Both the position numbers and the translations under genes were made by a program. DNA of 64,000 bases from the NCBI GenBank assembly GCA_016710095.1, contig JADJLL010000007.1, positions 41,122 through 105,121 on the forward strand, written 5' to 3'. The notes beneath the pieces are model-generated. The model did not search any database. It had not been told where the DNA came from and saw nothing but the letters and a program-made list of their open reading frames with translations. Each line of letters begins with the position of its first letter. Within the stretch, counting starts at the first letter, position 1. The stretch is from Candidatus Eiseniibacteriota bacterium (GTDB lineage Bacteria > Eisenbacteria > RBG-16-71-46). Shown here piece after piece: positions 18,936 through 47,373 of the stretch.

Positions 18936-19609
18936 GCAAGCGGAGAACGCAGGCGCCGCAGGCGCCGAAGAGCGCCGCTTCCGAACGCCGATCGCGCCCG
19001 GCGAACACACCGCTGATCGCGGGAGCCGCCGTGGTGGCGCTCGCGGCGGCGGGACTGTGGTTCGCCTACTTCGGAAAGACACGAGCTTCCGGCACTCCGC
19101 ACGTGAGCGTGCGCGCCGACGGACTGACGACGCAGCAGATGCTCGACAGCGTGCGCACGCATTTCGAGGCGCATCAGTGGGACGCCGCGCTCGCCTGGGC
19201 GCACGCGAGCAACGTGTCCGAGCCGGGCAACGCGCGGCTGCTGCTCAACGAAGCGCTCGCGTGGCACAACTACGCGCAGGACGCGACGCAGCGCTGGCCG
19301 GGGCGCTCGGCGACGCGCACGAGCCTCGATCGCATCGAGCTCGAGAAGCACGCGTTCGCACTGCTCGATTCCGCCGAAGCCGTCGCGGGCTCCGACGAAG
19401 AGTGGGCGAACATCCGGCGCTGGCGCGGCACGCAGTACGAGGTGCTCGGATCGCCGCTCGACGCCGTGCAGGCCTACGAGGAGGCGCTCGCGCGGTTCCC
19501 CGGCCATCGCGCGACCATCGAGCGCTTCGGCTGGTTGCAGCGCCTGATCGTGCGCCCGTCCGATCCGAAGAGCGTCACGGCGGAAGACGCCGCGCCGCGC
19601 CCCCGTTGA
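18932..19609 (+). CDS. membrane-anchored hypothetical protein (single N-terminal TM)
   Basis: GTG start with perfect GAAGGAGG RBS and GTGA overlap with the preceding stop. TM helix LIAGAAVVALAAAGLWFAYF. No recognisable domain. Confidence 0.5.
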   Translation: MSKRRTQAPQAPKSAASERRSRPANTPLIAGAAVVALAAAGLWFAYFGKTRASGTPHVSVRADGLTTQQMLDSVRTHFEAHQWDAALAWAHASNVSEPGNARLLLNEALAWHNYAQDATQRWPGRSATRTSLDRIELEKHAFALLDSAEAVAGSDEEWANIRRWRGTQYEVLGSPLDAVQAYEEALARFPGHRATIERFGWLQRLIVRPSDPKSVTAEDAAPRPR

Positions 19610-22157
19610 AGGAAGCGCGGCGCGAAGCGTACGTCGTGATGCGGGAACGCCAGTCGAGGCGGACCATGCGCTGCGTGCGCGTTCCCATACCGGACGTCAG
19701 CCGCACGAAGTAGAGTCCGGCGCGCGCGCGGGTGCCGTCCGCGAGACGGCCGTCCCAGCGCCACGAATGGCGCCCGGCGGAGAACTCGCCCGAGGTCTGC
19801 GCAATGCGCCGGCCGCTCGCGTCGAGCACCTCGACACGCGCGGATCCGGCCTGCGGCAGCGAGAACGTGAGCAGCGCGGAGCCGCCCGAAGGATTCGGCG
19901 TCGGACGCGCCAGCGCGAACGCGAGCACACCGTCCTCGACGGCGTCCGTGCTCGGGTCGCGCACGGTCACCGCAGTGACGAGCGTGTCGCTCGAGGCGTT
20001 GCCGGCCGCGTCGCGCGCGGTGATGCGCACGAAGCCGTCCTGCGTCGCGGGCGGCTGCACCGTCCACGAGTACGAGCCGGTGTTCGCGAGGCCGTGCGCG
20101 ATGCCGTACCACGGACCGCTCGTGCCGCTCGTCGAGAAGTCGATGTCCACCGAGTCCACGCCCGCGTTGTCCGTCGCGGACCACTGGATCGTGGCGGGCG
20201 AGCCCATGTCCCAGGTCTCGCCACCGGTCGGGAGCAGGAGATCCACCGTCGGCGCGGTGACGTCCACGAAGTGGGCGGCGAACGTACGCGCGCTCACGAG
20301 CGTCAGCGCGAGCGGATTGCCCGCCGTCGTCGTGTCGCCGGTCCAGCCGTCGAAGGCCCAGCCCGGCGAGGGCGTCGCGGTGACCGTGACGGACGCGCCG
20401 TACGCGTACTGCGCGAGATCGGGCGACTTCGAGACGCTGCCCGTGCCCGTGTGCGAAACGGTGAGGGAGAGCAGGTCGGCGGCGAAGCTCGCCGCGATCG
20501 TGTGCGCGGCGACGACGTTGTTGAACGTGTAGCCCGTGACCGCGCCCACGGAAACTCCGTCGACGAGGACGTCGTTCACGTGCGCGCCCGTCTGCGGCGT
20601 GATCGTGAACGCCTGCGAAGAGGCCTGGTTCACGGCGACGGCGCCCGAGGGCGCGATCGTGCCGAGTGCGCCGGCGCTCGCCGTGATCGTCCACGTGATC
20701 GGCGTGAACGACGCCGCGATCGTGTGGTTCGCGTTGATCGCGCTGAAGGTGTAGCTCGTGGGCGTGCCGACCGACACGCCGTCCACGAGCACCGTCGCGA
20801 CCTTGTAGTTCGCGGACGGCGTGATCGTGAACGTGCGGCTCGTGCCCTCGGCCTGCAGCAGCGTGCCGCTCGGCGTGATCGTGCCGTTGGCGCCCGCGCT
20901 GGCGACGATGCTCCAGCGGTCGATCGTGAAGTTCGCGGCGCTGGTGCCCGTGCCGGTGTTGAAGGCGGCGTCGCGCGCGTTCACGCGCATGCGCAGCGTC
21001 GTGCCCGGCGCGTTCGGGATGGCCCAGTTGTACGTGCCCGTGTTCGCGATGCCCGTGGCGATCGTGTTGGTGTAGTTGACGCCGCCGTCGGTCGAATAGG
21101 CGATGTCCACCGACACGACGCCGACGGCGTCGGTCGCGGTCCAAGTGATCGCGTGCGTGGAGCCAGCCTTCCAGACTTCGCCACCGTTGGGCGAGGTGAT
21201 CGTGACGCTCGGCGGCGTGACGTCGCCGGGCACGACGACGCCGCGGCGCGTGGCCCACTGCGCGGCGTTCAGGAAGATCGCACTGTCGGCCTTGGCTCCC
21301 GCGAGTTCGGTCCATCCGGTGTACACCGTGTTGCCCGGCGTCGCCGTACCGTCGTCCACGGGCGAACTGTCGCCCACGTACACGACGCGGCCGTTGCCGT
21401 ACACCGAATGCGCGACCATCGCGTTGCTCGTGCTGCCCTGCGGCATGCCCAGCATCCAGACGTCCGCGGTCACGGTGGGATTGATCGCCGGGTAGAGCGT
21501 GAAGGTGGTGCCGTTGTGGAAGGCGATGCCGGTCGCGTTGCCCCACGGTCCCGTGATGATCGAATCCCCCGGAGCCGTGTTCACGTTCGTGCTGGTCTGC
21601 ACGATGTTGTTGTTCGTTTCACCGAACACCTGCGAACGGATGCCCCAGAGCTTCTGGGCGTCGAGCAGGTTCGTGATCTGCGGGGAGTCGAAACCGTCGT
21701 TGTTCCGGTCGGACTGTCCGTGATCCACGATCAGGATCAGGCCGCCGCCGTCCCGCACGAAGTTGAAGATCGCGATGGACTCCGCGGCCGTGAACTTGAT
21801 GTTCGGCTCGGGCACGACGAACAGGTCGTAGTTCGAAAGGTCGTACTGGTTCGACGCGTTCTGGTAGGTGATCCCGTTCGGCGACGCGAGCGTATGCACC
21901 GTGTAGCCACGCTTCACGAGCGCGACACCGAAGGCCGAGATGCCGCCGGTCCAATAGGACTCGGGAGTCGTGGCGGTGATGCCCGACTGGGCCGGGCTGG
22001 GCACCGGGAACGTGTCGTCGATGATCCAGTCGGCGTTGCCGGCCTGCTCGGCCTTGGTGTTGTCGAACAACGCCTTCTTCTGGGCGGACGCCGGTGCGAC
22101 GAAGAGCGCCAGGGCGAGAAGCGCGAGCGCGAGAGGTTTGAGCATGGTGTCTTTCAT
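19575..22157 (-). CDS. large secreted multi-Ig-domain surface protein with C-terminal T9SS/FlgD-Ig-type sorting domain
   Basis: Signal peptide (MKDTMLKPLALALLALALFVAPASA). Repeated Ig-like modules (VTPPSVTITSPNGGEVW…, VTAPTVDLLLPTGGETW…). C-terminal ~80 aa resembles T9SS type-A CTD (…GLYFVRLTSGMGTRTQRMVRLD). Confidence 0.7.
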   Translation of the reverse strand: MKDTMLKPLALALLALALFVAPASAQKKALFDNTKAEQAGNADWIIDDTFPVPSPAQSGITATTPESYWTGGISAFGVALVKRGYTVHTLASPNGITYQNASNQYDLSNYDLFVVPEPNIKFTAAESIAIFNFVRDGGGLILIVDHGQSDRNNDGFDSPQITNLLDAQKLWGIRSQVFGETNNNIVQTSTNVNTAPGDSIITGPWGNATGIAFHNGTTFTLYPAINPTVTADVWMLGMPQGSTSNAMVAHSVYGNGRVVYVGDSSPVDDGTATPGNTVYTGWTELAGAKADSAIFLNAAQWATRRGVVVPGDVTPPSVTITSPNGGEVWKAGSTHAITWTATDAVGVVSVDIAYSTDGGVNYTNTIATGIANTGTYNWAIPNAPGTTLRMRVNARDAAFNTGTGTSAANFTIDRWSIVASAGANGTITPSGTLLQAEGTSRTFTITPSANYKVATVLVDGVSVGTPTSYTFSAINANHTIAASFTPITWTITASAGALGTIAPSGAVAVNQASSQAFTITPQTGAHVNDVLVDGVSVGAVTGYTFNNVVAAHTIAASFAADLLSLTVSHTGTGSVSKSPDLAQYAYGASVTVTATPSPGWAFDGWTGDTTTAGNPLALTLVSARTFAAHFVDVTAPTVDLLLPTGGETWDMGSPATIQWSATDNAGVDSVDIDFSTSGTSGPWYGIAHGLANTGSYSWTVQPPATQDGFVRITARDAAGNASSDTLVTAVTVRDPSTDAVEDGVLAFALARPTPNPSGGSALLTFSLPQAGSARVEVLDASGRRIAQTSGEFSAGRHSWRWDGRLADGTRARAGLYFVRLTSGMGTRTQRMVRLDWRSRITTYASRRASFNGGAARRLPP

Positions 22158-22295
22158 CGATGGGGCGATGGGCGCTGCGGGGGCAAAGTGTCCCCTCAAT
22201 AGTAGAGGGGCGCGCCTTGCCGAAACAAACGAAACACCGCCGCGACGCCGGGCAATTTGCCCCGGAGGCGCGGCGGCGGTGCGTTCTGCAAAACT

Positions 22296-22989: not shown

Positions 22990-24894
22990 TTACTTCTTCT
23001 TCTGCGCCGCCAGGATGCGCTCCATCTCGTCCATCGTCGCGTTCATCTCGGCCATCGCCGCGCGGAACGGAGCCGACGTGGTCATGTCCACGCCCGCGTC
23101 CTTGAGGAGGTCGATCGGGAACTTCGACGAGCCCGACGACAGCATGCGCAGGTAGGCGTCGCGGTGCGGCATGGGCTTGTTCGCGCCCTTCGCCATGTCC
23201 TCGTAGATGCCGTTGGCGATCGCCGACGAAGCGATGATGCTCGTGGCGTACTGGTACACGTAGAAGTTGCGGAAGAAGTGCGGAATGTAGGCCCACTCGA
23301 CTCCGTAGAGGTCGTCGACCTTGCAGACGCCCGCGTCGTGTCCGTAGTACTTGCGCACGAGTCCGAGGTACAGCTCGCTCATCGCGCGGCCGCTCAGCGC
23401 TTCGCCCTTCTCGGCCTTCTCGTGGATCGCGAGCTCGAACTCCGCGAACAGCGTCTGGCGGAACATGGTCGTGCGCAGGCCCTCGAGATGCGTGCTCAGC
23501 AGGAAGAGCCGCGTCTTCGGGTCCTTGGTCGTCGCGAGCATCCGGTGCAGGAGCAGGTTCTCGTTGAGCGTCGAGGCGACTTCGGCCACGAACGTCGCGT
23601 AGTCGTGCGTCGGGTAAGGCTGGGCCTTGTCGGCGAAGTACGTGTGCATCGAGTGGCCGGACTCGTGCGCGACGGTCGAGACCTCGTCGTACATGCCGGT
23701 GAAGTTCTGGAGCTGGTACGGGTGCACGCCGTACACGCCGGTGCTGTAGGCGCCCGAGCGCTTGCCGGGCGTCGGAATCCAGTCGACCCAGCCGTTGCGG
23801 AAGCCGTCGCCGAGCACGGTCACGTATTCCTTGCCGAGCGGCGCGACGGCTTCGAGCACGAGCGCCTGCGCCTGGTCGGGCGTGTAGCGCAGGTCGACTT
23901 CCTCGACGACGGACGCATACAGGTCCTCGTAGCGCAGGTCGCCCAGGCCCATCATGCGCTGGCGCAGCTTGAGGTAGCGGTGCAGCGTCGGCAGGTTGTC
24001 GTTCACATCCTTCACGAGCTGGTGGTAGACCGTCGTGGGGATGTTGTCGCCGAAGAGCGACGCCTCGAGGCACGAGCTGAACTTGTGCACGTCGCGGTTG
24101 AACAGGTGCGTCTGCACGGCCGCGTCGAGCGCGGCGCCGTAGGTGTTCTGCCATTCCTTGTGCGCCGTGAAGAACGCGCGGAACACGAGGTCGCGGTCCT
24201 CGCGCTTGGGCAGCTGGCGATACTGCGTGTAGGCGGCGGCGTCGAGCTTCACTTCCTTGCCGTCGCTCAGCTTCACGGTGGGCCACTTCATCTCGGCGTT
24301 CGCGAACACGCCGCGGATGTTGCCGCCGGCGCCCGCGAGCCGGCCGGCACGCGCGGCGACCGCTTCCTCGGCGGCGCTCAGCGTGTGCGGGGCGTAGCGC
24401 AGCAGGTCTTCGAGTCCGGCCTTGTAAGGAGCGAGCTTCGGTTCGGCGGCGAGGAAGCCCCGCACCTTGTCCGGGCCGACCGCGAGAATCTCGGGGCGCA
24501 TGAACGACGCCGCGGTCGAGAAGTCGACGTACAGGTTCTCGGCGAGCTGGTTCATCTCCTGCGCCTGGCTGTCACGCGTGTCTTCGTCGGAGCGCATGCT
24601 CGAGTAGACGTAGAGCTTCGTCAGCGCGAGATCGAGTTCGCTGCGCAACTGGAGCGCGGCGTAGAAGGTCGCGGCGGATTCGCCGAGGCGTCCCTTGTAG
24701 GCGTCGATCTCGTGCACGCGCTTGCCGAGTGCGGCGTGCTCCGTGTGCCACGCGGCGTCGCTCACGAACAGGTCGGAGGTCTTCCACTTGAGATTCGCGG
24801 GCACTTCCGAGCGTTCGACCGCGTGCGCGGCGGTGACCGTCATGCCGAGCAGCAGGAACGTGAAGAGTGTGTTGAGAAGAATGAAGCGGCTCAT
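22990..24894 (-). CDS. pepF: M3 family oligoendopeptidase F, secreted
   Basis: HESGHSMH zinc-binding HEXXH motif in an M3B-like ~600-aa body. N-terminal signal peptide. Confidence 0.85.
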   Translation of the reverse strand: MSRFILLNTLFTFLLLGMTVTAAHAVERSEVPANLKWKTSDLFVSDAAWHTEHAALGKRVHEIDAYKGRLGESAATFYAALQLRSELDLALTKLYVYSSMRSDEDTRDSQAQEMNQLAENLYVDFSTAASFMRPEILAVGPDKVRGFLAAEPKLAPYKAGLEDLLRYAPHTLSAAEEAVAARAGRLAGAGGNIRGVFANAEMKWPTVKLSDGKEVKLDAAAYTQYRQLPKREDRDLVFRAFFTAHKEWQNTYGAALDAAVQTHLFNRDVHKFSSCLEASLFGDNIPTTVYHQLVKDVNDNLPTLHRYLKLRQRMMGLGDLRYEDLYASVVEEVDLRYTPDQAQALVLEAVAPLGKEYVTVLGDGFRNGWVDWIPTPGKRSGAYSTGVYGVHPYQLQNFTGMYDEVSTVAHESGHSMHTYFADKAQPYPTHDYATFVAEVASTLNENLLLHRMLATTKDPKTRLFLLSTHLEGLRTTMFRQTLFAEFELAIHEKAEKGEALSGRAMSELYLGLVRKYYGHDAGVCKVDDLYGVEWAYIPHFFRNFYVYQYATSIIASSAIANGIYEDMAKGANKPMPHRDAYLRMLSSGSSKFPIDLLKDAGVDMTTSAPFRAAMAEMNATMDEMERILAAQKKK

Positions 24895-25065
24895 GTCGCA
24901 ACCTCGACGAAGAGGAGTGAAGTGAAGTGACGTGCTGCCGGCGCGCGCGTCGCACGAAACGTGTCGCGAGCGCGCGCATGCTAGCAGCGTCGCGCTTCGT
25001 TCGCCGCGCGGAGTGCGGTGCCATGGGTGCTCGCGTGACGAGCGCGGCGTGAAAGGGCGCGAGCG

Positions 25066-25081
25066 TGGAACACCTTATGCT
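25066..25081 (+). promoter_or_regulatory. candidate sigma-54 (-24/-12) promoter upstream of the cytochrome/two-component operon
   Basis: TGGAAC-N5-TTATGCT, with GG and GC spaced as in the TGGCAC-N5-TTGCW consensus. Lies ~45 nt upstream of the cytochrome c start. Sequence-pattern only. Confidence 0.25.
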
Positions 25082-25124
25082 GCACTTGTGGCGACGAAGT
25101 GTGTTGGGAGAAAGGGGGATCTGG

Positions 25125-25841
25125 ATGATCCCGAATGCTTCACGTCACGCCTCACGTGTTCGCCGCACAGGTCACGCTGGACTCCTCATTCTCGTGACCG
25201 CCGTCATGACGATGGCAAGCGCCGCAGGCCGCGCCGAAGGTACGCGCGCGATTCCCCTCAAACTGCCTGCTGGCATCGTTTACGACAAGGTTTCCGGTCC
25301 CGACAGCGCCGTCGTCTTCCGTCACACGACTCATGTGGACTACGAAAACGGCCGCTGCACCGGTTGTCACCCCAAGCTCTATCACCTCCTGAATCCCACG
25401 CGCCGCATCGAGCACGCCGAAATGAACCGCGGCGGATCGTGCGGCGCTTGTCATGACGGAACACACGCCTTTGACGTTCGCTCCAAAGCGTCATGCGGTG
25501 CCTGTCACGTTGGCAGAAAGAGCGAGTCGATCCTGAACGCGGAAAGCGAGGCGATGCGCAGCTCGGCGTCGTTCCGCGGACCCGATCCCTACACATACCC
25601 CGCCGGGCGCACGTCGCCGGGGCCCGTCACGTTCAAGCACACCACGCACACGGGCGCCTCGATGAAGTGCAACACCTGCCACTCGCGGCTCTTCGAGATG
25701 AAGGCCCGCCCTCCGTTCGAGGACGAGTGGATGCACGGCAAGGCGAAGTGCGGCGCATGCCACGACGGCAAGGCGAGCTTCGGAGTCGACGACCAGAAGC
25801 TCTGCGGCAAGTGCCATGCGGAAGGAAGGGCGAAGCCATGA
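25125..25841 (+). CDS. periplasmic hexaheme c-type cytochrome
   Basis: Sec signal peptide. Six CXXCH motifs (CTGCH, CGACH x3, CNTCH, CGKCH) in 238 aa. AAAGGGGGA RBS. Confidence 0.8.
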   Translation: MIPNASRHASRVRRTGHAGLLILVTAVMTMASAAGRAEGTRAIPLKLPAGIVYDKVSGPDSAVVFRHTTHVDYENGRCTGCHPKLYHLLNPTRRIEHAEMNRGGSCGACHDGTHAFDVRSKASCGACHVGRKSESILNAESEAMRSSASFRGPDPYTYPAGRTSPGPVTFKHTTHTGASMKCNTCHSRLFEMKARPPFEDEWMHGKAKCGACHDGKASFGVDDQKLCGKCHAEGRAKP

Positions 25842-26581
25842 GCCACGCGCTGTTGCTCGACACCACGCTGTGCACCGGATGCGGCGCGTGCACGGCGGCC
25901 TGCAAGGAACAGAACGCGCTGCCCGTGGACATCGAGGATCGGAACACCGCCTACACGTGGTGCACGGTCGAGAAGCGCGGGAACACGTTCGTCCGCCGGA
26001 TGTGCATGCACTGCGAGTCGCCGACGTGCGCGTCGGTGTGCCCGGTCGGCGCCATGACGAAGAGTCCCGAAGGCCCGGTGCTGTACGACCCCAAGAAGTG
26101 CATCGGCTGCCGCTACTGCATCCAGGCGTGTCCGTTCGACGTGCCGAAGTACCAGTGGGACCGGAACGTTCCCGTCGTGGCCAAGTGCATCATGTGCCAG
26201 CCACGTCTCGCGAAGGGCGAGCCGACGGCGTGCGCCGCCGTGTGCCCGACCGGCGCGACGAAGTTCGGCCATCGTGACGACCTCGTCCGCGAGGCCAAGG
26301 AACGCATCGCCGCGACGCCGGGCCGGTACGTGGACCACATCTATGGACTGCACGAGGCCGGTGGAACGTCGGTGCTCATGTTGTCCGCGGTGCCGTTCGG
26401 CCAGCTCGGCCTGCGCACGAACCTGCCCGACGAACCGCTCGGCCAGCTCACGTGGCGCGTGCTGAGCCGTGTGCCCGACATCGTCCTGATGGGCGGCACG
26501 CTGCTCTACGGCGTCTACTGGATCACGAAGCGCCGGGATCACGTGCGGCGCATCGAGGGCGGGGAGGGGCACGAGTCATGA
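25838..26581 (+). CDS. NrfC/HybA/PsrB-like 4x[4Fe-4S] ferredoxin subunit with C-terminal membrane anchor
   Basis: Four ferredoxin-type Cys clusters (CTGCGACTAAC, CMHCESPTCASVCP, CIGCRYCIQACP, CIMCQ…CAAVCP). C-terminal TM (IVLMGGTLLYGVYWI). ATGA overlap with the cytochrome stop. No obvious Tat signal. Confidence 0.8.
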   Translation: MSHALLLDTTLCTGCGACTAACKEQNALPVDIEDRNTAYTWCTVEKRGNTFVRRMCMHCESPTCASVCPVGAMTKSPEGPVLYDPKKCIGCRYCIQACPFDVPKYQWDRNVPVVAKCIMCQPRLAKGEPTACAAVCPTGATKFGHRDDLVREAKERIAATPGRYVDHIYGLHEAGGTSVLMLSAVPFGQLGLRTNLPDEPLGQLTWRVLSRVPDIVLMGGTLLYGVYWITKRRDHVRRIEGGEGHES

Positions 26582-27735
26582 CGACGATGGAACTGCCGCG
26601 TCCGCGCGGCGTGCGGTTCGGCGCCTGGACGGCGATCTTCGGATTGCTCGTGATCGCGTTCCTCTACGCGACCGTCATGCGCTTCTACAAAGGTCTCGGC
26701 GCCACGACGAACCTCTCGGACGCGTTCCCGTGGGGCATCTGGATCGGGTTCGACATCCTCTGCGGTGTCGGTCTCGCGGCCGGCGCGTTCACGCTCATGG
26801 CCACCGTGCACCTGTTCCACATCGAGAAGTTCAAGCCGATCGTGCGCCCGACGCTGCTGACGGGCTACCTCGGCTACCTGCTCGTATGCGTGGGACTGAT
26901 GTACGACCTCGGGCAGCCGTGGCGCATCTGGCACGCGATCATCTACTGGAACGAACACAGCGTGATGTTCGAGGTCGCGTGGTGCGTGATGCTCTACACC
27001 ACGGTGCTGACGCTCGAGTTCTCGCACATCGTGTTCGAGCGGCTGAACTGGAAGTGGGCGCTGAACATCATGCATGCGCTCAACACGCCGCTCGTGATCC
27101 TGGGCTGCCTGCTCTCCACGCTGCACCAGTCGTCCCTCGGCACGATGTACCTGATCGTCCCCGAGAAGCTGCACGCCCTCTGGTACACGCCGGCGCTGCC
27201 GCTGCTCTTCTACATCTCGGCGATCGGGGCGGGACTCGGGATGGTCATCCTCGAGTCGCATCTGTCCGGGCGGGCCCTGGGGCACGAACTCGAAATGGAC
27301 CTGCTCGAGCCGCTCGGCCGCGTGATGATCGTGGTGCTCGCGATCTTCGGCGTCCTGCGCCTCGACCTCATGTGGCACTCGGGCGCGCTGAAGATGGTGT
27401 TCCAGCCCATGTACGAGAGCCGGATGTTCCTCGCCGAGTTCGGCATCGGCGTGCTGGCCCCGATCTTCCTGCTGGCGTGGCCGCGCGTGCGGCGTTCGCC
27501 GGTGGGGCTCGTGATCGGCGCGACGTGCGCGGTCCTCGGCTTCATGCTGTACCGGTTGAACGTGAGCATCACGGGCATCGAACGCGCGAGCGGCACGCAC
27601 TACGTGCCGTCGTGGATGGAGATGGCCGTTTCGGTCGGCCTCATGGCGATCGGCGTGGCGCTGTTCGGGCTCGCCGTGCGCTACCTGCCGATCTTCCCGG
27701 CGAGCAAGCACGGCTCGCACGCTCACCGGGCGTGA
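26578..27735 (+). CDS. NrfD/PsrC/HybB-like polytopic membrane quinone-interacting subunit
   Basis: ~8-9 predicted TM helices with NrfD-family topology. ATGA overlap with the upstream FeS gene. Confidence 0.85.
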   Translation: MTTMELPRPRGVRFGAWTAIFGLLVIAFLYATVMRFYKGLGATTNLSDAFPWGIWIGFDILCGVGLAAGAFTLMATVHLFHIEKFKPIVRPTLLTGYLGYLLVCVGLMYDLGQPWRIWHAIIYWNEHSVMFEVAWCVMLYTTVLTLEFSHIVFERLNWKWALNIMHALNTPLVILGCLLSTLHQSSLGTMYLIVPEKLHALWYTPALPLLFYISAIGAGLGMVILESHLSGRALGHELEMDLLEPLGRVMIVVLAIFGVLRLDLMWHSGALKMVFQPMYESRMFLAEFGIGVLAPIFLLAWPRVRRSPVGLVIGATCAVLGFMLYRLNVSITGIERASGTHYVPSWMEMAVSVGLMAIGVALFGLAVRYLPIFPASKHGSHAHRA

Positions 27736-27744
27736 GGTGAAGTG

Positions 27745-29655
27745 ATGAAACTGCGGATCGGCGTCCTGACCGTACTGGGAGTCGCGGCCGTCACGGCCGG
27801 GAGCATCGGCATGATGTCCGGCCTGGTGCTCAAGGCGCATCGTGACGCGCAGATCGCCCAGCTCACTCAGGGCGCCGATCAGCTGAGCGAGACGATCGTG
27901 AGCAGCACGTTCTGGGACATGCTCGAGAACCACCGTCCCGCGCTGCACCGCGAGATGATCACGATCGGGAAGCAGAAGGGCATCGAGAAGGTCCGGCTGT
28001 TCAACCGGACCGGCAAGATCATGTTCTCCTCGAGCGAGGGCGAGATCGGGCACTCGCTCGACAAGAAGTACGAGGCCTGCATCGCGTGTCACGCCGCCGA
28101 CCAGCCGATCACGCGGCCGCCGACGAAGGCGCGCGCGCGCATCTACCGCGCGGCGGACGGGCACCGGGTGCTGGGCATGATCCGCCCGATCCACAACGAG
28201 ACGCGCTGCTGGAACTCGGGCTGCCACGCGCACTCGCGCGAGGAGAACGTGCTCGGCGTGCTCGACGTGAACCTGTCGCTCGCCGAGACCGACGCGCGCA
28301 TCGCAGCCGACCAGCGCCGCATGATCCTGCTCGCCGTGCTCATCATGGCGACGATCAGCACGGTCCTGTTGTGGTTCGGCGAGCGGCTCGTGCTGCGGCC
28401 CGTGCGCGAACTGATCGCCGGTACGCGCCGCGTCGCCGCGGGCGACCTGCACACGATGCTGCCCGCCGCCTCGAGCACCGAACTGGGCGACCTCGCGCGC
28501 GCGTTCAACGAGATGACGAGCAAGCTCTCCGACGCGCAGCGCCAGCTCACGCAGGCGGACAAGCTCGCCTCGGTCGGCCGGCTCGCCGCCGGCGTGGCGC
28601 ACGAGATCAACAACCCGCTCACCGGCGTGCTGACGTACGCCTCGTTCCTGCAGAAGCGTCTCGCCGACCGTCCCGAGGTGAAGGAAGACCTCGAGGTGAT
28701 CGTGCGCGAGACGAAGCGCTGTCGCGACATCGTGCGCGGGCTGCTCGACTTCTCGCGCCAGTCGCCGCCGCAGCACAAGCCGACCGACCTCAACGAGATC
28801 GTGCGCCGCGCCGTGGCCGTCGTGATGAACCAGCTCATGCTGCGCCGCGTCGCGCTCGACTTCCATCTCGCCGACGGGCTCGAAGCCGTGCCGGCGGACG
28901 GCAACCAGATCCAGCAGGTCGTCGTGAATCTCGTGATGAACGCCGCCGACGCGATCGGCGAGGGCGGCGGCACGATCGCCGTGCGCACCGCGGCCGTCGA
29001 ACTGCCCGCGCGTGGGAACTCGATCATCCGCCTGGCGCGCTGCCCGCACGGATGCGACGTCCTCGATCCCACGGTGCGCATCGGCGCGCACCCGGCGATC
29101 AAGGTGATCCGCCGCACGGGCGACCGCGACGACGTCGTGCACATGGATCCCGTGTACGGCCGCGCGAACCACCACGCGAGCGGCCCGCTCGAACGCGACA
29201 AGCTCGCGACGTACGCCTGCCCGCGCTGCCGCGCGAAGCTCGACGGCCCCGCGCGCTGCGGCGACTGCGGCGCGCCGACCTTCGCGGTCGTCTCGCCCGA
29301 GCTCGGCCGCATCGAGTGGTGCACGCGCAAGGGCTGCCACTGGACGCGCTGCGAGACGCTCGACGCGTCGGGCCCGCTACGCATGGTCGAGCTGGAAGTG
29401 CGCGACAGCGGCAAGGGCATCGCGCCGGAGGATCTCGATCACCTGTTCGAGCCGTTCTTCACGACCAAGGGCAACCGCGGTCTGGGGCTGGGGCTCGCGG
29501 TGACCTACGGCATCGTCGAGCGCCACGGCGGCACGATCGTGGTGTCGAGCGAGTTGGGGAACGGCGCGACGTTCCTCGTGCGCCTGCCGCTCCTGCGCGC
29601 GGGGCAGAACGCCGCGATCGTCACGGAGTCCGTCCGGACGGGAGGTGTCTCGTGA
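27745..29655 (+). CDS. sensor histidine kinase with periplasmic c-type-heme sensor domain and a Cys-rich (Zn-ribbon-like) insertion inside the HATPase domain
   Basis: TM1…~160-aa periplasmic domain with CIACH (CXXCH) and CWNSGCH (CX4CH)…TM2, then HAMP and HisKA (H box AHEINNPL). HATPase N-box NLVMNAADA, then a ~140-aa insert containing CPHGC, CPRC, CGDC and CTRKGCHWTRC, then the G1/G2 boxes (DSGKGI…GLGLGLAV). Confidence 0.85.
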   Translation: MKLRIGVLTVLGVAAVTAGSIGMMSGLVLKAHRDAQIAQLTQGADQLSETIVSSTFWDMLENHRPALHREMITIGKQKGIEKVRLFNRTGKIMFSSSEGEIGHSLDKKYEACIACHAADQPITRPPTKARARIYRAADGHRVLGMIRPIHNETRCWNSGCHAHSREENVLGVLDVNLSLAETDARIAADQRRMILLAVLIMATISTVLLWFGERLVLRPVRELIAGTRRVAAGDLHTMLPAASSTELGDLARAFNEMTSKLSDAQRQLTQADKLASVGRLAAGVAHEINNPLTGVLTYASFLQKRLADRPEVKEDLEVIVRETKRCRDIVRGLLDFSRQSPPQHKPTDLNEIVRRAVAVVMNQLMLRRVALDFHLADGLEAVPADGNQIQQVVVNLVMNAADAIGEGGGTIAVRTAAVELPARGNSIIRLARCPHGCDVLDPTVRIGAHPAIKVIRRTGDRDDVVHMDPVYGRANHHASGPLERDKLATYACPRCRAKLDGPARCGDCGAPTFAVVSPELGRIEWCTRKGCHWTRCETLDASGPLRMVELEVRDSGKGIAPEDLDHLFEPFFTTKGNRGLGLGLAVTYGIVERHGGTIVVSSELGNGATFLVRLPLLRAGQNAAIVTESVRTGGVS

Positions 29656-30050
29656 GCCGAGCCTGGGACGTGCTGGTGGTGGACGACGAAGCCGTCGTGC
29701 GCGGCGGCGTGAAGCTCGTGCTCGAGCCCGAAGGACTGGCCGTCGCGCAGGCCGCGACCGTCGCCGAGGCGCTCGCGAGCGACGCCCTGAACGAATGCCG
29801 CTTGCTGCTCTGCGACCTGATGCTGCAGGGCGAGAGCGGACTCGAGGTCGTGAGCGAGGCGCGCCGCCGCCGGCCCGCGCTGCCCATCGTGCTCATGACC
29901 GGCTATGCCACCGACGACAACGCCGCCCTCGGCGCGCAGTCCGGTGCGACCGATTTCCTCGCGAAGCCTTTCGATGATGTCGAGCTGTTGGACCAGGTAC
30001 GGCGTGTCCTCGGGGATGCCCATGCCGACGAGAAGGAGGGATCGTCATGA
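29652..30050 (+). CDS. single-domain CheY-like response regulator
   Basis: GTGA overlap with the kinase stop. VLVVDDE…D-L-M-L receiver with conserved Asp (LLLCDLMLQG) and Lys (FLAKPF). Confidence 0.75.
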   Translation: MSRAWDVLVVDDEAVVRGGVKLVLEPEGLAVAQAATVAEALASDALNECRLLLCDLMLQGESGLEVVSEARRRRPALPIVLMTGYATDDNAALGAQSGATDFLAKPFDDVELLDQVRRVLGDAHADEKEGSS

Positions 30051-30102
30051 CCGCGCTTCTGGTGGTCGTGCTGTGTGTGTTGTTCCTGGGATCGAACTCG
30101 GC

Positions 30103-31194
30103 GTGCGCGCCGTGAACAAGAACCTCGAAGCCGCCCGCGTGCGGCGCGAGCGTGAAGCCGTGCTCAAGGCGCCCGTGAAGCTGGACATCGCGACCGAGAC
30201 GCCCAGCCTGCAGCGCGCCGAAGTGCCGAACGCGAAGGCCCGCATCCTCGCCGTGGACGACGAGGCGATCGTGCTCGACTCGTTCCGCAAGATCCTCGTG
30301 CTCGCCGGCTTCAGCGTGGACACCGTGAACACCGGTCCCGAGGCGCTCGCGCTCGTGCGCCAGCGCGACTACGACTTCCTGTTCACCGATCTCAAGATGC
30401 CGGTCATGGAAGGCACCGAGGTCGTGAAGGCCGTGAAGCACCTGCGTCCGGACGTGGACGTCGCCGTGATCACCGGCTTCGCCACGATCGAGACCGCCGT
30501 CGAAACGATGATGCACGGCGCGGTGGACTACGTGCAGAAGCCGTTCACGGAAGAAGAGCTCGTCGCGTTCGCGAACCGCATGTACGTGCGCCGTCAGGCG
30601 CGCATCGAGTCGCAGTCGAAGCCGGCCGTGCGCGTGGTCGCGCCCGAGCTGGTGGACATCATGGCGTCGCGTGAGTACGTCGTGCCCGGCGGCATGTTCG
30701 TGGCGACCGGCCACACGTGGGCGCGCATCGAGGACACCGGCGAAGTGTGCGTCGGCATCGACGACTTCGCGCGCAAGGCGATCGGCAAGGTCGAGCGCGT
30801 CGAGCTGCCCGCGCCCGGCACGAGCGTGAAGCGCGGCGAGGTGCTGTTCGTGGTGCGCCGCAAGGATGAGCACGTGCGCTTCCGTTCGCCCGTGAGCGGC
30901 ACGGTGACGGCGGTGAACGGCGACGTGAAGAAGGACGCCCGCGCGATGCTGGAGAGCCCGTACGAGCACGGTTGGACGTGCATGCTGCACCCGACCGACC
31001 TGACGCTCGACCTGGCAAACCTGCGCATCGGCAAGACCGTCGTGAGCTGGTACCAGGACGAGGTGACCGCGCTGCGCAAGGCGAACTCGGAAGCGACCGA
31101 CGGCGTGGTCCGCTGGTCGGCGCTCGAGGAGCGCTTCATGGGCGCCGGCGACGCCCCGCGCGAAACCACGACGGAGATCGTCGAAGTCGGGTAG
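30103..31194 (+). CDS. response regulator: receiver domain fused to a glycine-cleavage-system H-protein-like (lipoyl-carrier-fold) domain
   Basis: REC (ARILAVDDE…FLFTDLKMP…VQKPF) followed by a clear GcvH-like region (HTWARIEDTGEVCVGIDDFARKAIGKVERVELPAPGTSVKRGEVLFVV…SPVSGTVTAVNGDV). The lipoyl-Lys of the ESVKA motif is not conserved in register (VVRRKDEH). Start chosen at in-frame GTG 30103; 30112 is also possible. Confidence 0.75.
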   Translation: MRAVNKNLEAARVRREREAVLKAPVKLDIATETPSLQRAEVPNAKARILAVDDEAIVLDSFRKILVLAGFSVDTVNTGPEALALVRQRDYDFLFTDLKMPVMEGTEVVKAVKHLRPDVDVAVITGFATIETAVETMMHGAVDYVQKPFTEEELVAFANRMYVRRQARIESQSKPAVRVVAPELVDIMASREYVVPGGMFVATGHTWARIEDTGEVCVGIDDFARKAIGKVERVELPAPGTSVKRGEVLFVVRRKDEHVRFRSPVSGTVTAVNGDVKKDARAMLESPYEHGWTCMLHPTDLTLDLANLRIGKTVVSWYQDEVTALRKANSEATDGVVRWSALEERFMGAGDAPRETTTEIVEVG

Positions 31195-43351: not shown

Positions 43352-45307
43352 TCAGGACGCCTTGCGGACGTTCGGTGGCACCGGCATGAGCTTGGAATCG
43401 GACTTCCGCGCCGGTGGCTGGTGCGCGAGGTGATCCGCGCCGCAGGCCGGGCAGTGCTTCCACTCGGGCCGCATCCGCTTCTGGCACTTCTCGCAGTGCT
43501 CGCCGATGAAGCTGCCGCACGCGGTGCAGTACTCGAAGTCCTGCGACACGACGTGCGTGCAATGCGGGCAAACCTTCACGTGCTGCTCGGCGAGGTACAC
43601 GACGCGCGTGATCTCGTCGACGGTGGTCTGTCCCGTGAACGCCTTGTCGAGGCCGTCCTGGCCGATCGGGGTCATGCCTTCCTCGATCGCGACGCGACGG
43701 ATCTCGCTGTCGGACGCGTTGCTCGTGATGAGGCGGCGGACGTTGTCGCTCACCTCGAGCAGTTCGAAGATGCCCGTACGCCCGGCGTAGCCCGAGCCGT
43801 CGCACGAGGGGCAGCCCGCGCCGCGCCACAGCTCGATCGGCTCGTCGTCGGCCGGCGCCGATGCGCTGAGCCGGGCGATGGCCGCGGAGTCGCCGGCGTA
43901 GGACTCCTTGCACTTGGGGCAGAGCGTGCGCACGAGCCGCATGCTCACGACGCCGACGAGCGAGGTCGCGACCATGAACGGTTCGAGGCCGAGGTCGATG
44001 AGGCGCGTGACGGCGCCGGCGGCGTCGTTCGTGTGCACCGTGCTCAGCACGAGATGTCCGGTGACGGACGCGCGGAACGCGATCTGCGCCGTCTCCTTGT
44101 CGCGGATCTCACCGATCATGATGATGTCGGGATCCTGGCGAAGGATGGCGCGCAGCGCGCCGGCGAACGTCTTCTTCGCCTTCTCGTCCACGTGCACCTG
44201 GTTGATGCCCGGGATCTGGTACTCGACCGGGTCCTCGACCGTGGTGATGTTGCGCGTCACGTGCTGCAGGTGGCGCAGCGCCGCGTAGAGCAGGGTGGAC
44301 TTGCCCGAGCCGGTCGGACCGGTCACGAGGATGATGCCCTGCGGGCGCGACAGGAACTTCTTGAGCCGCTTGAGATCGCGCTCCGTGAAGCCGATCGAGT
44401 CGAGTTCGACGCGTGCGCGCGACTGGTCCACGACGCGCATGACGACCTTCTCGCCGTTCGTGATGGGCAGCGTCGAGACGCGCATGTCCACGCGACGTCC
44501 GCCGATCTCGGCGACGAGCCGTCCGTCCTGCGGCTGGCGCTTCTCGGCGATGTCGAGGTTCGCGAGCACCTTGATGCGCGAGACGATCGCGCCCTGCGTC
44601 CACTTCGGCAGGCGCTGCTCTTCGCGCAGCAGGCCGTCCACGCGCAGGCGCACGATGAGATCGTTGTTCTGCGGCTCGATGTGGATGTCGCTCGCGCGTG
44701 CTTCGACGGCGCGGTGCAGCAGCCAGTTCGTGAGGCGCACGATGGGGCGGCCTTCGGCCTCCTTCATCAGCTCGTCGATCGCCTGGCGTTCCTCGGTGTC
44801 GTCGACGGCGCTCACGACGATGTCGTCTTCGTTCGAGATGATGCTCTGGATCACCTCGTTCACCGACGTGTCGATGTGGTAGTAGCGCTCGATCGCTTCG
44901 AGGATCTGCGACTGCGCCGCGAGCACCGGCTTGATGAACATGCCGGTGTGGAAGCGCAGGTCCTCGATGCCGTTCACGTTGAGCGGGTCGGCCATGGCCA
45001 CGACCAGCGTGCGCTTGGACTCGATGTCCACCGGGATCGCGAGGTACTTCCGCGCCTGCTCTTCCTTGATGAGCTGGAGCGCGCGCTCGTCCGGGGCGGT
45101 CTCGTCGAAGTTCACGACCGGCAGCCCGAGCTGGCGGTGCAGCCAGTTCACGAGCACGTGCTCGTCCAGCAGTCCGAGGCGCACGAGCGTCGCGCCGAGC
45201 AGCTGACCGGTGCGCTTCTGCTCGGAGACGGCGCGTTCGAGGTCTTCCGGAGAGACGAGCTTGTTCTCGACGAGGAGGTCGCCGAGACGACGGTGCGTGG
45301 TGGCCAT
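43352..45307 (-). CDS. GspE/PilB/MshE-family secretion ATPase with N-terminal MshEN-like c-di-GMP-binding domain and C-terminal Cys-rich zinc-ribbon extension; orphan (no cognate T2SS/T4P genes nearby)
   Basis: Tandem MshEN-like motifs (RLGDLLVENKLVSPEDLERAVSEQ / LLGATLVRLGLLDEHVLVNWLHRQ). Walker A GPTGSGKST. Asp box and His box of T2SS-E ATPases. Tetracysteine CPKC…CPSC. Extra C-terminal CPHCTHV…CTACG…CEKC…CPACG. Confidence 0.85.
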   Translation of the reverse strand: MATTHRRLGDLLVENKLVSPEDLERAVSEQKRTGQLLGATLVRLGLLDEHVLVNWLHRQLGLPVVNFDETAPDERALQLIKEEQARKYLAIPVDIESKRTLVVAMADPLNVNGIEDLRFHTGMFIKPVLAAQSQILEAIERYYHIDTSVNEVIQSIISNEDDIVVSAVDDTEERQAIDELMKEAEGRPIVRLTNWLLHRAVEARASDIHIEPQNNDLIVRLRVDGLLREEQRLPKWTQGAIVSRIKVLANLDIAEKRQPQDGRLVAEIGGRRVDMRVSTLPITNGEKVVMRVVDQSRARVELDSIGFTERDLKRLKKFLSRPQGIILVTGPTGSGKSTLLYAALRHLQHVTRNITTVEDPVEYQIPGINQVHVDEKAKKTFAGALRAILRQDPDIIMIGEIRDKETAQIAFRASVTGHLVLSTVHTNDAAGAVTRLIDLGLEPFMVATSLVGVVSMRLVRTLCPKCKESYAGDSAAIARLSASAPADDEPIELWRGAGCPSCDGSGYAGRTGIFELLEVSDNVRRLITSNASDSEIRRVAIEEGMTPIGQDGLDKAFTGQTTVDEITRVVYLAEQHVKVCPHCTHVVSQDFEYCTACGSFIGEHCEKCQKRMRPEWKHCPACGADHLAHQPPARKSDSKLMPVPPNVRKAS

Positions 45308-45387
45308 CCTTGGTTCTCCACAATGGGGGGAAGGAGTCCTGCGCCCGTTATCGGCCCGGCCTCCGGGGCCATTGAGCGTTGATTGCC

Positions 45388-47373
45388 ATGGGAATGGCTT
45401 CGCATGGCGTCGTGGCGCGCGCGCGTGCTAGCGTGCCCGCCGTGACTTCCGACACTTCTCCCGGCGCCCCGACGGGGCCGCGCCCCTCGACCGAACATTC
45501 ACTGCCTCGCATCTCCGCCCAGTCGCTGCTCGGCCCGGAGGGCGTGAGCGGGACCGCTCATTTCCACGACCTGCTGCGCTCGGCGACCCGCCAGTGCCGC
45601 AAGCTCGTGGACTGCGAGCAGGTCCGTCTCTGGGTTGCCCGCCGTGGCGGCCGCCGGCTCGTGGCGCGCGACTTTCCCGAGGAAAATCCGGGAGCGCAGC
45701 CCCAGGAGCACCGCCTGCCCCGTGGCGAAGGTGTCGCGGGATGGGTGATGACGCACCAGCGCACGCTGCGTCTCGGCGCGGGCGACGTCCTGCCGGACGA
45801 CGTGAAGGGCGCGCGCACGCCGTTCCGCAGCGCGCTCGTGATTCCGCTGCTGCGCCGCGGCGAGCCGTTCGGCGCGATCGAGTGCCTCGACAAGCGCGGC
45901 GGTGATTTCACCGACGCCGATTTCGACCGGCTCGAAGTGGCCGCCGAGAGCGTCGCGTTCGCGCTCGACTACGCGCTGCTGTACCAGGAGATCGAACGGC
46001 GCGCGCTCGAGAAGGAAGTGCTGCTCGACATCACGCGCGCGCTCGCGTCGCCCTTCGATCTCGAGGAAGTGATCGAGGAGATCTTCAAGTCGCTGCGCCA
46101 GGTCGTGGACTACGACGCGGCCGCGATCTACCTCGTGCAGCGCGGCACCGGCGTGCTCGAGATGGTGAGCGAGCACGGCTACCCGACGGGCTCGGAGCAC
46201 GCGTTCGAGCTGCAGATGGGGCAGGGCATCGTCGGCTGGGTCGCGAAGACGGGCGAGAGCGTGATCGTGCCCGACGTGAGCACGGACAAGCGCTACGTCG
46301 CCGCGCGGCCGCAGACGCGCAGCGAGATCGCGACGCCGCTCATGCTGCAGGGCCGCGTGTTCGGCGTGTTCAACCTCGAGAGCGAGCACGTGGACGCGTA
46401 CCACGAAGGCCACCTCGAGATGCTCGCCGCGTTCGCGGCGCAGGCCGCCGTCGCGGTCGAGCGCGCGCGTTCGGCGCGTGACCTCATGGAGCGCCGCCGG
46501 CTCGAGAAGGAACTCGCCATCGCGCGCGAGATCCAGAAGTCGTTCCTGCCCGCGGGCGCGCCGATCATTCCCGGCTTCGACCTCGCCGGCACGTCCATCA
46601 CGCACGACGAGGTGGGCGGCGACTACTTCGACTTCATTCCCGTGTCCGAAACGCGGCTCGGTCTCGCCGTGGCGGACGTGTCGGGCAAGGGCATTCCCGC
46701 GGCGCTGCTCATGGCCGGTTTCCGCATGAGCCTGCTCGCCGAGATCCGCAACGAGTTCGCGATCCGCGCCGTCATGCGCAAGGCGAACAGCCTGCTGCAC
46801 GAGAGCACCGAGCGGGACAAGTTCGTCACCGCCTTCTACGGCGTGCTCGACTGGCGGAACAGCATCCTCATCTTCAGCAACGCGGGGCACAATCCGCCGC
46901 TGGTCATGCACCGCGACGGCACCACCGAGCACCTGCTCGACGGTGGCCTCGCGCTCGGCGTGCTGCCGGATTCGAGCTACGAGGAGCGCCCGATCGCGCT
47001 GCGCGAGGGCGACGTGCTCGTGTTCTACACGGACGGCGTCTCCGAGGCCGAGAACGAGCACGGCGAGCAGTTCGGGGAGGAGCGCCTCGAGCAGGTCGCG
47101 CGCGAGAACGCCGACCGGCCCGCCGCCGACCTCCTGGCCGCCATCGTGGACGCCGTGGTCGTGTGGACGGGGGAGCGCGGTCCGAGCGACGACCTCACCC
47201 TGATCGTCGTCCGGAAGACCGGCCCGACCCCTGAGGGCGGCCGGCTGGCGGCATGCCCCCGGCCCGGTGACGCCGTCGCGGCACCGCACTCCGCGCGGCA
47301 TCGGAACTCCAACTCGAAGTTCAAGCATTACTTGAAGCGCGTCATTCTTGACCGCTCCAAACGCGTTCGATAG
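45388..47373 (+). CDS. GAF-GAF-PP2C (SpoIIE/RsbU-type) serine/threonine phosphatase
   Basis: Two GAF-like regions (…GVAGWVMTHQRTLRL…, …GIVGWVAKTGESVIVPDVSTD…), then a PP2C domain (…GGDYFDFIP…ADVSGKGIPAALLM…FYTDGVSEA…). Start ambiguous (TTG 45379, ATG 45388 or 45394). Confidence 0.8.
   Translation: MGMASHGVVARARASVPAVTSDTSPGAPTGPRPSTEHSLPRISAQSLLGPEGVSGTAHFHDLLRSATRQCRKLVDCEQVRLWVARRGGRRLVARDFPEENPGAQPQEHRLPRGEGVAGWVMTHQRTLRLGAGDVLPDDVKGARTPFRSALVIPLLRRGEPFGAIECLDKRGGDFTDADFDRLEVAAESVAFALDYALLYQEIERRALEKEVLLDITRALASPFDLEEVIEEIFKSLRQVVDYDAAAIYLVQRGTGVLEMVSEHGYPTGSEHAFELQMGQGIVGWVAKTGESVIVPDVSTDKRYVAARPQTRSEIATPLMLQGRVFGVFNLESEHVDAYHEGHLEMLAAFAAQAAVAVERARSARDLMERRRLEKELAIAREIQKSFLPAGAPIIPGFDLAGTSITHDEVGGDYFDFIPVSETRLGLAVADVSGKGIPAALLMAGFRMSLLAEIRNEFAIRAVMRKANSLLHESTERDKFVTAFYGVLDWRNSILIFSNAGHNPPLVMHRDGTTEHLLDGGLALGVLPDSSYEERPIALREGDVLVFYTDGVSEAENEHGEQFGEERLEQVARENADRPAADLLAAIVDAVVVWTGERGPSDDLTLIVVRKTGPTPEGGRLAACPRPGDAVAAPHSARHRNSNSKFKHYLKRVILDRSKRVR

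Follow-up and report, generated by a model that had tools for sequence, protein, structure and literature searches.

Introduction

Histidine kinases almost always have their input domains N-terminal to the dimerisation and histidine phosphotransfer (DHp) domain. The gene considered here raises the question of whether a signal may also enter such a kinase through its ATP-binding domain. It encodes a sensor histidine kinase and lies in a stretch of 64,000 nucleotides (the window, to which all positions refer unless stated otherwise) from contig JADJLL010000007.1 of assembly GCA_016710095.1, the genome of a Candidatus Eiseniibacteriota bacterium, an uncultured soil or sediment organism. An earlier note on this DNA, written without database searches, had described a cysteine-rich insertion of about 140 residues between the N box and the G1 box of the kinase, together with two c-type heme motifs in its periplasmic loop. 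Here we report that the ATP-binding domain of this histidine kinase hosts an inserted module, which belongs to an undescribed family. Neither the insert nor the domain family nor the gene cassette around the kinase was found described in the literature searched. A conserved, self-folding, metal-binding domain inside an ATP-binding domain would represent a different signal route into a two-component system.

An inserted domain splits the ATP-binding domain of the kinase

The open reading frame of the kinase is uninterrupted and encodes 637 residues from the GTG at 27742, from which we count residue numbers, or 636 residues from the ATG at 27745, the start in the earlier note. By its sequence, the protein is a transmembrane class I histidine kinase resembling ZraS, AtoS, and NtrB, and is predicted to be catalytically intact. 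The profiles HisKA (PF00512) and HATPase_c (PF02518) both matched above their cut-offs, with 60.5 bits (cut-off 26.9) and 79.4 bits (cut-off 26.4), respectively. Across 104 aligned homologues sharing 57–92% identity, the phospho-acceptor His287 of HEINNPL, the N-box residues N396 and N400, the D555xGxG motif, FEPFF, and GxGLGL are all invariant.

Aligning the kinase to the HATPase_c profile delimits the insertion, as the earlier note had anticipated, because the profile matched in two separate stretches, the second of which (residues 547–617) begins at profile position 36 of 111. The top NCBIfam models, namely AtoS, ZraS, and VirA-like, have best-scoring stretches that stop at about residues 416–423. 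When aligned to the ZraS structure (PDB 9jfj), residues 266–414 correspond to ZraS 12–159 and residues 548–617 to ZraS 167–235. Given the gap between these two blocks, about 133 residues of the kinase stand in place of about 7 residues of ZraS. The distance from the N box (residue 396) to the G1 box (residue 555) is 159 residues, compared with 36–53 residues in sister kinases possessing the same sensor. The split profile and the ZraS alignment thus bear out the insertion site between the two boxes, in a β-hairpin loop. The length first estimated as about 140 residues was slightly too high: the insert spans about 126 residues (residues 421–546), or up to about 133 by the ZraS alignment. No solved structure of a DHp and catalytic (CA) core covers the insert in a Foldseek search with the full-length model, where chains of about 232 residues align over about 353 columns.

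The insertion is conserved and under purifying selection

Among 5.8 billion proteins searched, more than 120 clusters of homologues matched the query with 58–100% identity over about 97% of its length, and nearly all of them are 620–690 residues long. The cysteine motifs of the insert, CPHGC, CPRC-x9-CGDC, and CTRKGC, as well as CIACH and CWNSGCH in the periplasmic loop, are all present at their translated coordinates, and the eight insert cysteines listed in Table 1 are invariant among the 104 aligned homologues. The last motif had been given as CTRKGCHWTRC; its first two cysteines are invariant, whereas the third, C538, is not conserved and is replaced by tryptophan in most homologues.

We scanned genomes, one per species, with a six-sequence alignment of the insert, which reaches insert-bearing kinases only and not the stand-alone relatives described below. 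The insert was present in 26 species-representative genomes belonging to Candidatus Eisenbacteria, Acidobacteriota/Polarisedimenticolia, and some unclassified lineages, all of them metagenome-assembled and none from a cultured organism. In each of these 26 genomes, the insert is collinear with the kinase parts on either side of it, and all three share one frame. Against the four closest genomes, the ratio of non-synonymous to synonymous substitution rates (dN/dS) was 0.16–0.33 for the insert, 0.17–0.22 for the periplasmic sensor, and 0.04–0.15 for the catalytic core. The insert is therefore under purifying selection at roughly the level of the sensor domain.

The insert might instead be a product of a frameshift, a chimeric assembly, or a recent mobile-element insertion in this contig. 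The earlier note had raised frameshift and assembly error and had reported other indels in the contig; in addition, some public gene calls of homologues (P0139, P0157, and P0181) are visibly frameshifted. However, the reading frame of the window kinase is unbroken, the GC fraction of third codon positions, taken across the entire reading frame, is 0.94, the same architecture recurs in more than 100 protein clusters as well as the 26 independent genomes, dN/dS is well below 1, and the AlphaFold2 model described below is confident and continuous across both junctions. Since the insert is conserved in frame in independent genomes and is under purifying selection, we exclude frameshift and assembly error; an artefact has a negligible probability, and we regard this explanation as already refuted by the conservation data.

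The three frameshifted gene calls contain long Arg/Ala/Pro-rich out-of-frame stretches, easily mistaken for truncated variants of the insert. We rejected them as half-insert or truncated variants because they are frameshifted gene calls in GC-rich metagenome contigs.

The insert belongs to a family of autonomous domains

The full-length AlphaFold2 model, built with 104 sequences, had a mean predicted local distance difference test score (pLDDT) of 84.4, with block means of 91–98 across the insert. Long strands comprising residues 410–421 and 546–555 run into and out of the insert. Modelled alone, residues 421–546 reached a pLDDT of 93.8 and a predicted template modelling score of 0.87, in an all-β fold with one short C-terminal helix. 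The structure prediction that the earlier note had proposed thus suggests that the insert can fold by itself.

We searched 1.84 billion representative proteins with a profile of the insert and obtained 267 matches at E ≤ 1e-3, 88 of which had E ≤ 1e-10. The 150 matches listed are mostly stand-alone proteins of about 130–150 residues made of this domain alone, here called the Cys8 domain. The list also includes tandem two-copy proteins of about 280 residues, eight representatives with the domain C-terminal to NuoE-like thioredoxin-like [2Fe-2S] domains, three representatives with fusions to CBS pairs, and further fusions to an adenylate cyclase/AAA_16 protein and to a Mur-ligase-like protein. 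The cysteines of knuckles 2, 3, and 4 are kept in 100–101 of 101 aligned domain copies. The first cysteine of knuckle 1 is kept in 91 of the 101, and its second ligand is Cys or His. Further motifs common to the copies are L-x-D, P-S-I, YG, and R-x-GC.

Because stand-alone, tandem, and fused copies share the conserved cysteines, the insert is a copy of a domain family and not an expansion of the loop; sequence and model together identify it as an autonomous all-β domain of about 110–126 residues from an undescribed family. The search for homologous inserts, likewise proposed in the earlier note, thus returned more than 100 kinase homologues and a family outside kinases. Where that note had seen two zinc-ribbon or rubredoxin-like knuckles, there are indeed four conserved cysteine pairs of the knuckle type, although they belong to a whole, widespread domain and not merely to isolated knuckles. 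The source annotations of Cys8 proteins read "hypothetical protein" or generic zinc-ribbon labels. This new family is small and has no entry in Pfam, NCBIfam, or the PDB; in uncultured anaerobes, it turns up repeatedly together with NuoE-type, CBS, or hydrogenase-related genes.

Several of the genes encoding Cys8 domains outside kinases have informative neighbours. A NuoE fusion (L006, 6985–8118 of that locus) is followed by NuoF/GltD-like, ferredoxin-like, and glutamate-synthase-like genes. A tandem copy (L007, 7001–7861) adjoins a CBS protein and lies near Rex-like, sensory [FeFe]-hydrogenase, and HydABC-like genes, and a stand-alone copy (L040/L041, 5001–5411) sits within a cluster of hyp genes for hydrogenase maturation, with Rex and NuoEF nearby.

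Similarity to zinc ribbons, rubredoxins, and methionyl-tRNA synthetase is weak

The insert had no significant match in the PDB, Pfam, or NCBIfam, where it gave sub-threshold zinc-ribbon matches only. DZR scored 11 bits on the window insert against a cut-off of 27.3, and Zn_ribbon_6 scored 13.6 bits against a cut-off of 25. Zn_ribbon_6 was matched at E < 0.1 by 27 of 35 stand-alone relatives, the best at 1.3e-5. The sub-threshold matches to double zinc ribbon, TFIIS, the topoisomerase I ribbon, YfgJ, and the zinc knuckles of methionyl-tRNA synthetase (MetRS) are all located on the CxxC motifs. Two CxxC knuckles would lie on consecutive hairpins, the CPRC-x9-CGDC stretch being invariant and a strand being predicted before each knuckle. 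Rubredoxin profiles matched below threshold only: the rubredoxin domain of rubrerythrin at E 0.6, and NCBIfam rubredoxin-like models at 12.6–14.3 bits, against cut-offs of 32–45, in one stand-alone relative. Since no family threshold was passed, we assigned the insert to no zinc-ribbon, rubredoxin, or MetRS family.

The likeness to MetRS is weak and recurrent among the stand-alone relatives (P0198, P0373, and others), where it concerns the connective-peptide zinc-knuckle region (PF09334 positions of about 100–230). PF09334 was weakly matched by 12 of 35 stand-alone relatives, with one relative above the cut-off, and PDB chains of MetRS matched the Cys8 domain at E 0.12–1.4. One NCBI record names a Cys8 protein "class I tRNA ligase family protein". 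The similarity to the MetRS zinc knuckles is too weak for a claim of homology.

Elsewhere in the window, the reading frame at 43355–45427 on the reverse strand has weak zinc-ribbon-like repeats near its C-terminus (E 0.007 to a broad domain profile), probably an unrelated ribbon.

The periplasmic sensor is predicted to carry two hemes

The periplasmic domain between the two membrane helices was predicted by AlphaFold2 to have an α/β fold resembling PAS and Cache domains. It contains two c-type heme attachment motifs, to which hemes are predicted to attach. As the earlier note had read them, these are CIACH and CWNSGCH, and their residues C113/C116/H117 and C156/C161/H162, together with H164, are invariant in the 104 homologues. 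PF21563 matched the C-terminal half of the sensor below threshold (24.6 bits against a cut-off of 27, E 3.2e-5, profile positions 71–111 only) and is among the precomputed annotations of some homologues. The region of the Cx4CH motif aligns with the CxxCH of the structure 3B47 by the pattern "DG.RVL..I.P..NE..C..(..)CH". The upstream CxxCH would be an additional site, and two hemes are therefore expected.

Sister kinases lack the insert

Among proteins with the same di-heme sensor at 46–53% identity are kinases without the insert, which have the short N-to-G1 spacing given above. One of them, P0325, reads "TISLVTSVVSSDGKEYVQIKITDTGCGI" at the insertion site, where the window protein has a domain instead of the SSDGKE turn; another, P0313, has a longer hairpin there. 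The locus of P0325 (L035) encodes the same partners in another order: histidine kinase, two successive response regulators fused to GcvH-like domains, cytochrome c7, FeS protein, and NrfD. The insertion is lineage-specific, since kinases that share the di-heme sensor and the cassette do without it. These sisters are a natural control for what the insert does.

Insert-less kinases sharing both sensor and cassette partners comprise P0325, P0307, P0313, P0315, P0329, and P0335. An insert-bearing kinase also occurs in a low-GC organism, in a similar cassette.

The kinase is encoded in a conserved cassette

The kinase gene is part of a six-gene cassette on the forward strand (Table 1), which we interpret as a putative quinone-interacting electron-transfer module encoded with a two-component system without DNA-binding output; it extends over 25065–31194 and recurs in loci L001, L002, and L009–L034. 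Virtually every related locus of sufficient length has the same gene order. Such a conserved signalling and respiratory cassette, hitherto uncharacterised, is thereby flagged in Eisenbacteria and Acidobacteriota. The cognate receivers of the kinase are predicted to be the products of the two receiver-domain genes directly 3′ of it, and the overlap of the kinase stop codon with the start of the first suggests translational coupling. Neither response regulator has a DNA-binding domain.

Table 1. Predicted features of the kinase and its gene cassette, in window positions and with residue numbers (aa) counted from GTG 27742.
Feature	Position	Strand	Basis
Hexaheme cytochrome c, two c7-type modules, six CxxCH, first cassette gene	25065-25841	+	synteny
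4Fe-4S dicluster protein, NrfC/HybA-like, C-terminal hydrophobic helix	25850-26581	+	
NrfD-family integral membrane (quinone-interacting) subunit	26575-27735	+	
Sensor histidine kinase gene	27742-29655	+	list of open reading frames; Pfam HAMP, HisKA, split HATPase_c; homologue clusters
Periplasmic sensor domain, aa 31-190, flanked by two hydrophobic helices	27832-28311	+	AlphaFold2 secondary structure; sub-threshold PF21563; 3B47 alignment
CIACH, first c-type heme attachment motif (CxxCH), invariant	28078-28092	+	translation; alignment
CWNSGCH, second heme attachment motif (Cx4CH), invariant	28207-28227	+	translation; alignment; 3B47
HAMP domain, aa 215-263	28384-28530	+	Pfam
HisKA/DHp domain, aa 279-340, phospho-acceptor His287 in HEINNPL	28576-28761	+	Pfam; alignment
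N-terminal HATPase_c part: N box NLVMNAADA (28927-28953) and first hairpin strand	28894-29001	+	Pfam; ZraS alignment; AlphaFold2
Inserted all-β Cys8 domain, aa 421-546	29002-29379	+	in place of hairpin loop (SSDGKE in insert-less sister P0325)
Knuckle 1, CPHGC (C434, C438), putative outer-site partner of knuckle 4	29041-29055	+	translation; invariant
Knuckles 2 and 3, CPRC-x9-CGDC (C493, C496, C506, C509), putative inner zinc-ribbon-type site	29218-29268	+	translation; invariant; sub-threshold zinc-ribbon profile matches
Knuckle 4, CTRKGC (C527, C532)	29320-29337	+	translation; invariant
C-terminal HATPase_c part, aa 547-617: G1 DSGKGI (29404-29421), F box FEPFFTTK, G2 GLGLGL	29380-29592	+	Pfam; ZraS alignment
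Single-domain response regulator; GTG start overlaps kinase stop codon (GTGA, 29652-29655)	29652-30050	+	
Response regulator fused to GcvH-like domain, start approximate	30220-31194	+	

The GcvH-like output domain of the second response regulator matched PF01597 at E 1e-16; by eye, no lysine is seemingly in register at the lipoyl-lysine position of true H proteins. Some loci (L001) have an extra stand-alone GcvH-like gene upstream of the cassette. The 4Fe-4S subunit begins with MSHALLLD, without a twin-arginine signal, and the side of the membrane on which it resides bears on a possible contact with the kinase insert.

Upstream of the cassette and on the opposite strand, 22990–24894 encodes an M3-family oligopeptidase. 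At 19575–22199, also on the reverse strand, lies the gene for a large protein of secreted type, whose repeats are Ig-like, FlgD-Ig, and Big_7; an Ig-repeat protein adjoins the cassette in L001 too.

Discussion

How could a domain at this position influence the kinase? In the GHKL fold, the hairpin loop bearing the insert is located at the edge of the sheet, far from the ATP pocket, so that the insert would leave catalysis unblocked and project as an extra surface. Its eight cysteines would form two nested Cys4 sites, an inner one from CPxC-x9-CxxC and an outer one from CPxGC and CxRxGC. Each site would hold one metal ion, most probably a structural zinc and possibly iron. The outer site, comprising knuckles 1 and 4, would clamp the domain at its two ends, a tie that is needed where a domain sits in a loop. 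We give even chances to the interpretation, based on sequence and model, that the insert gives the catalytic domain a cytoplasmic input, as a regulatory module or a docking site, which may respond to thiol or metal state. The kinase might then integrate the periplasmic heme signal with a cytoplasmic one and pass its output to the two response regulators encoded with the cytochrome c/FeS/NrfD membrane complex. The NuoE fusions followed by NuoF-like genes, the CBS fusions and the CBS neighbour, and the copy in the hyp cluster support a link of the family to redox and nucleotide proteins. That redox or metal is sensed on both sides of the membrane, as the earlier note had proposed, is a plausible hypothesis.

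A bolder extension, which we consider somewhat unlikely, would make the Cys8 module a widespread new cytoplasmic metal or thiol sensor that plugs into nucleotide-using and redox proteins (HATPase_c, CBS, cyclase, and NuoE/F) and, in this kinase, gates the ATP-binding domain. The kinase would then be a two-sided coincidence detector, reading the redox state of its two periplasmic hemes together with the redox or metal state of the cytoplasm, and would control the cytochrome c/FeS/NrfD respiratory module via non-transcriptional response regulators, one of them with a GcvH-like output.

Several observations weigh against a regulatory input of this kind. The association with redox genes is a tendency and not a rule, as one stand-alone copy lies between ProRS and Era in a housekeeping-like context and other contexts are uninformative short contigs. 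No separate Cys8 copy was found beside the insert-less sister kinase in L035 or anywhere else in the window, and a partnership of kinase and domain thus gains no Rosetta-stone support. We infer both the identity of the metal and the pairing of the cysteines, zinc and iron being indistinguishable by sequence, and we place the insert relative to the DHp domain and the ATP lid from what is generally known of the GHKL fold. The Cys8 family has no member with a solved structure or an experiment.

Two other explanations take the domain as real and assign it a different role. Both Cys4 sites could bind iron as in rubredoxins. The insert would then be a redox centre passing electrons to and from cytoplasmic carriers, for example ferredoxin, modules of the NuoEF type, or the neighbouring FeS subunit, and its oxidation state would switch the kinase. 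The CPxC/CxxCG knuckle type is common to rubredoxins, the weak matches include the rubrerythrin rubredoxin domain and rubredoxin-like NCBIfam models, and fusions of the domain to NuoE-like [2Fe-2S] proteins recur in operons that contain NuoF. Cys8 copies also lie near hydrogenase, Rex, and hyp genes, and the kinase itself is encoded within an electron-transport cassette of an anaerobe-type lineage. However, all these matches are far below threshold and no better than those to the zinc ribbons eL40, L37Ae, RPB12, YfgJ, and TopoI; the CBS, cyclase, and Mur-ligase-like fusions and the housekeeping contexts need no electron transfer, and the ambiguity between zinc and iron counts against this explanation as well. 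We consider it unlikely.

An equally improbable role would be that of a zinc-stabilised module without signal input, tolerated by a permissive loop, which rigidifies the catalytic domain or serves oligomerisation or localisation. The insertion site is a variable loop, to judge from the spacing in the sister kinases and the longer hairpin of P0313, and the sisters work in the same cassette without an insert. The zinc-knuckle inserts of MetRS are structural, their similarity to the Cys8 domain being weak. Such a role accords poorly with the purifying selection across two phyla, which acts at the level of the sensor on the entire domain and not on the cysteines alone, and with the repeated recruitment into other signalling and redox proteins that is typical of functional modules.

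The closest known kinases are those of the ZraS/AtoS/NtrB type (PDB 9jfj and 1r62), which share the HEINNPL H box, the motifs of the CA domain, and the topology of a periplasmic domain between two membrane helices followed by HAMP. ZraS was matched at E 5e-38 by sequence, the best NCBIfam matches include AtoS and ZraS, and the best fold match by Foldseek had E 1e-16. Unlike the window kinase, these proteins have no domain in the hairpin between the N and G1 boxes; the window kinase further differs in its di-heme sensor and in cognate regulators without DNA-binding domains. The sensor finds its nearest counterpart in the Geobacter chemoreceptors GSU0582 and GSU0935 (PF21563; PDB 3B42 and 3B47), which are also periplasmic between two transmembrane helices and have the heme motif in the same β-strand context. 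In contrast to the chemoreceptors, the kinase, with its sub-threshold PF21563 score, has Cx4CH in place of CxxCH, a second CxxCH upstream, and a kinase output.

The insert itself shares the CPxC-x9-CxxC spacing, β-hairpin knuckles, and an all-β fold with the zinc ribbons of TFIIS, the C-terminal region of topoisomerase I, YfgJ (PF07191), and DZR (PF12773), which were its best though weak matches. The connective-peptide module of MetRS, an insertion with an outer and an inner knuckle pair, is likewise a cysteine-knuckle domain inside a nucleotide-binding catalytic domain, a loose likeness. As for regulation, PknG is a Ser/Thr kinase whose rubredoxin domain is N-terminal and not inserted, the catalytic-domain disulfide of SrrB (PDB 6paj) is formed by two cysteines of the CA fold itself, and the CA domain of NtrB is bound by a separate protein, PII. 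All three share regulation directly at the ATP-binding domain and not via an N-terminal sensor, the first two through redox-sensitive cysteines. None of them has a Cys8 domain, and the analogy to the window kinase is a functional one only.

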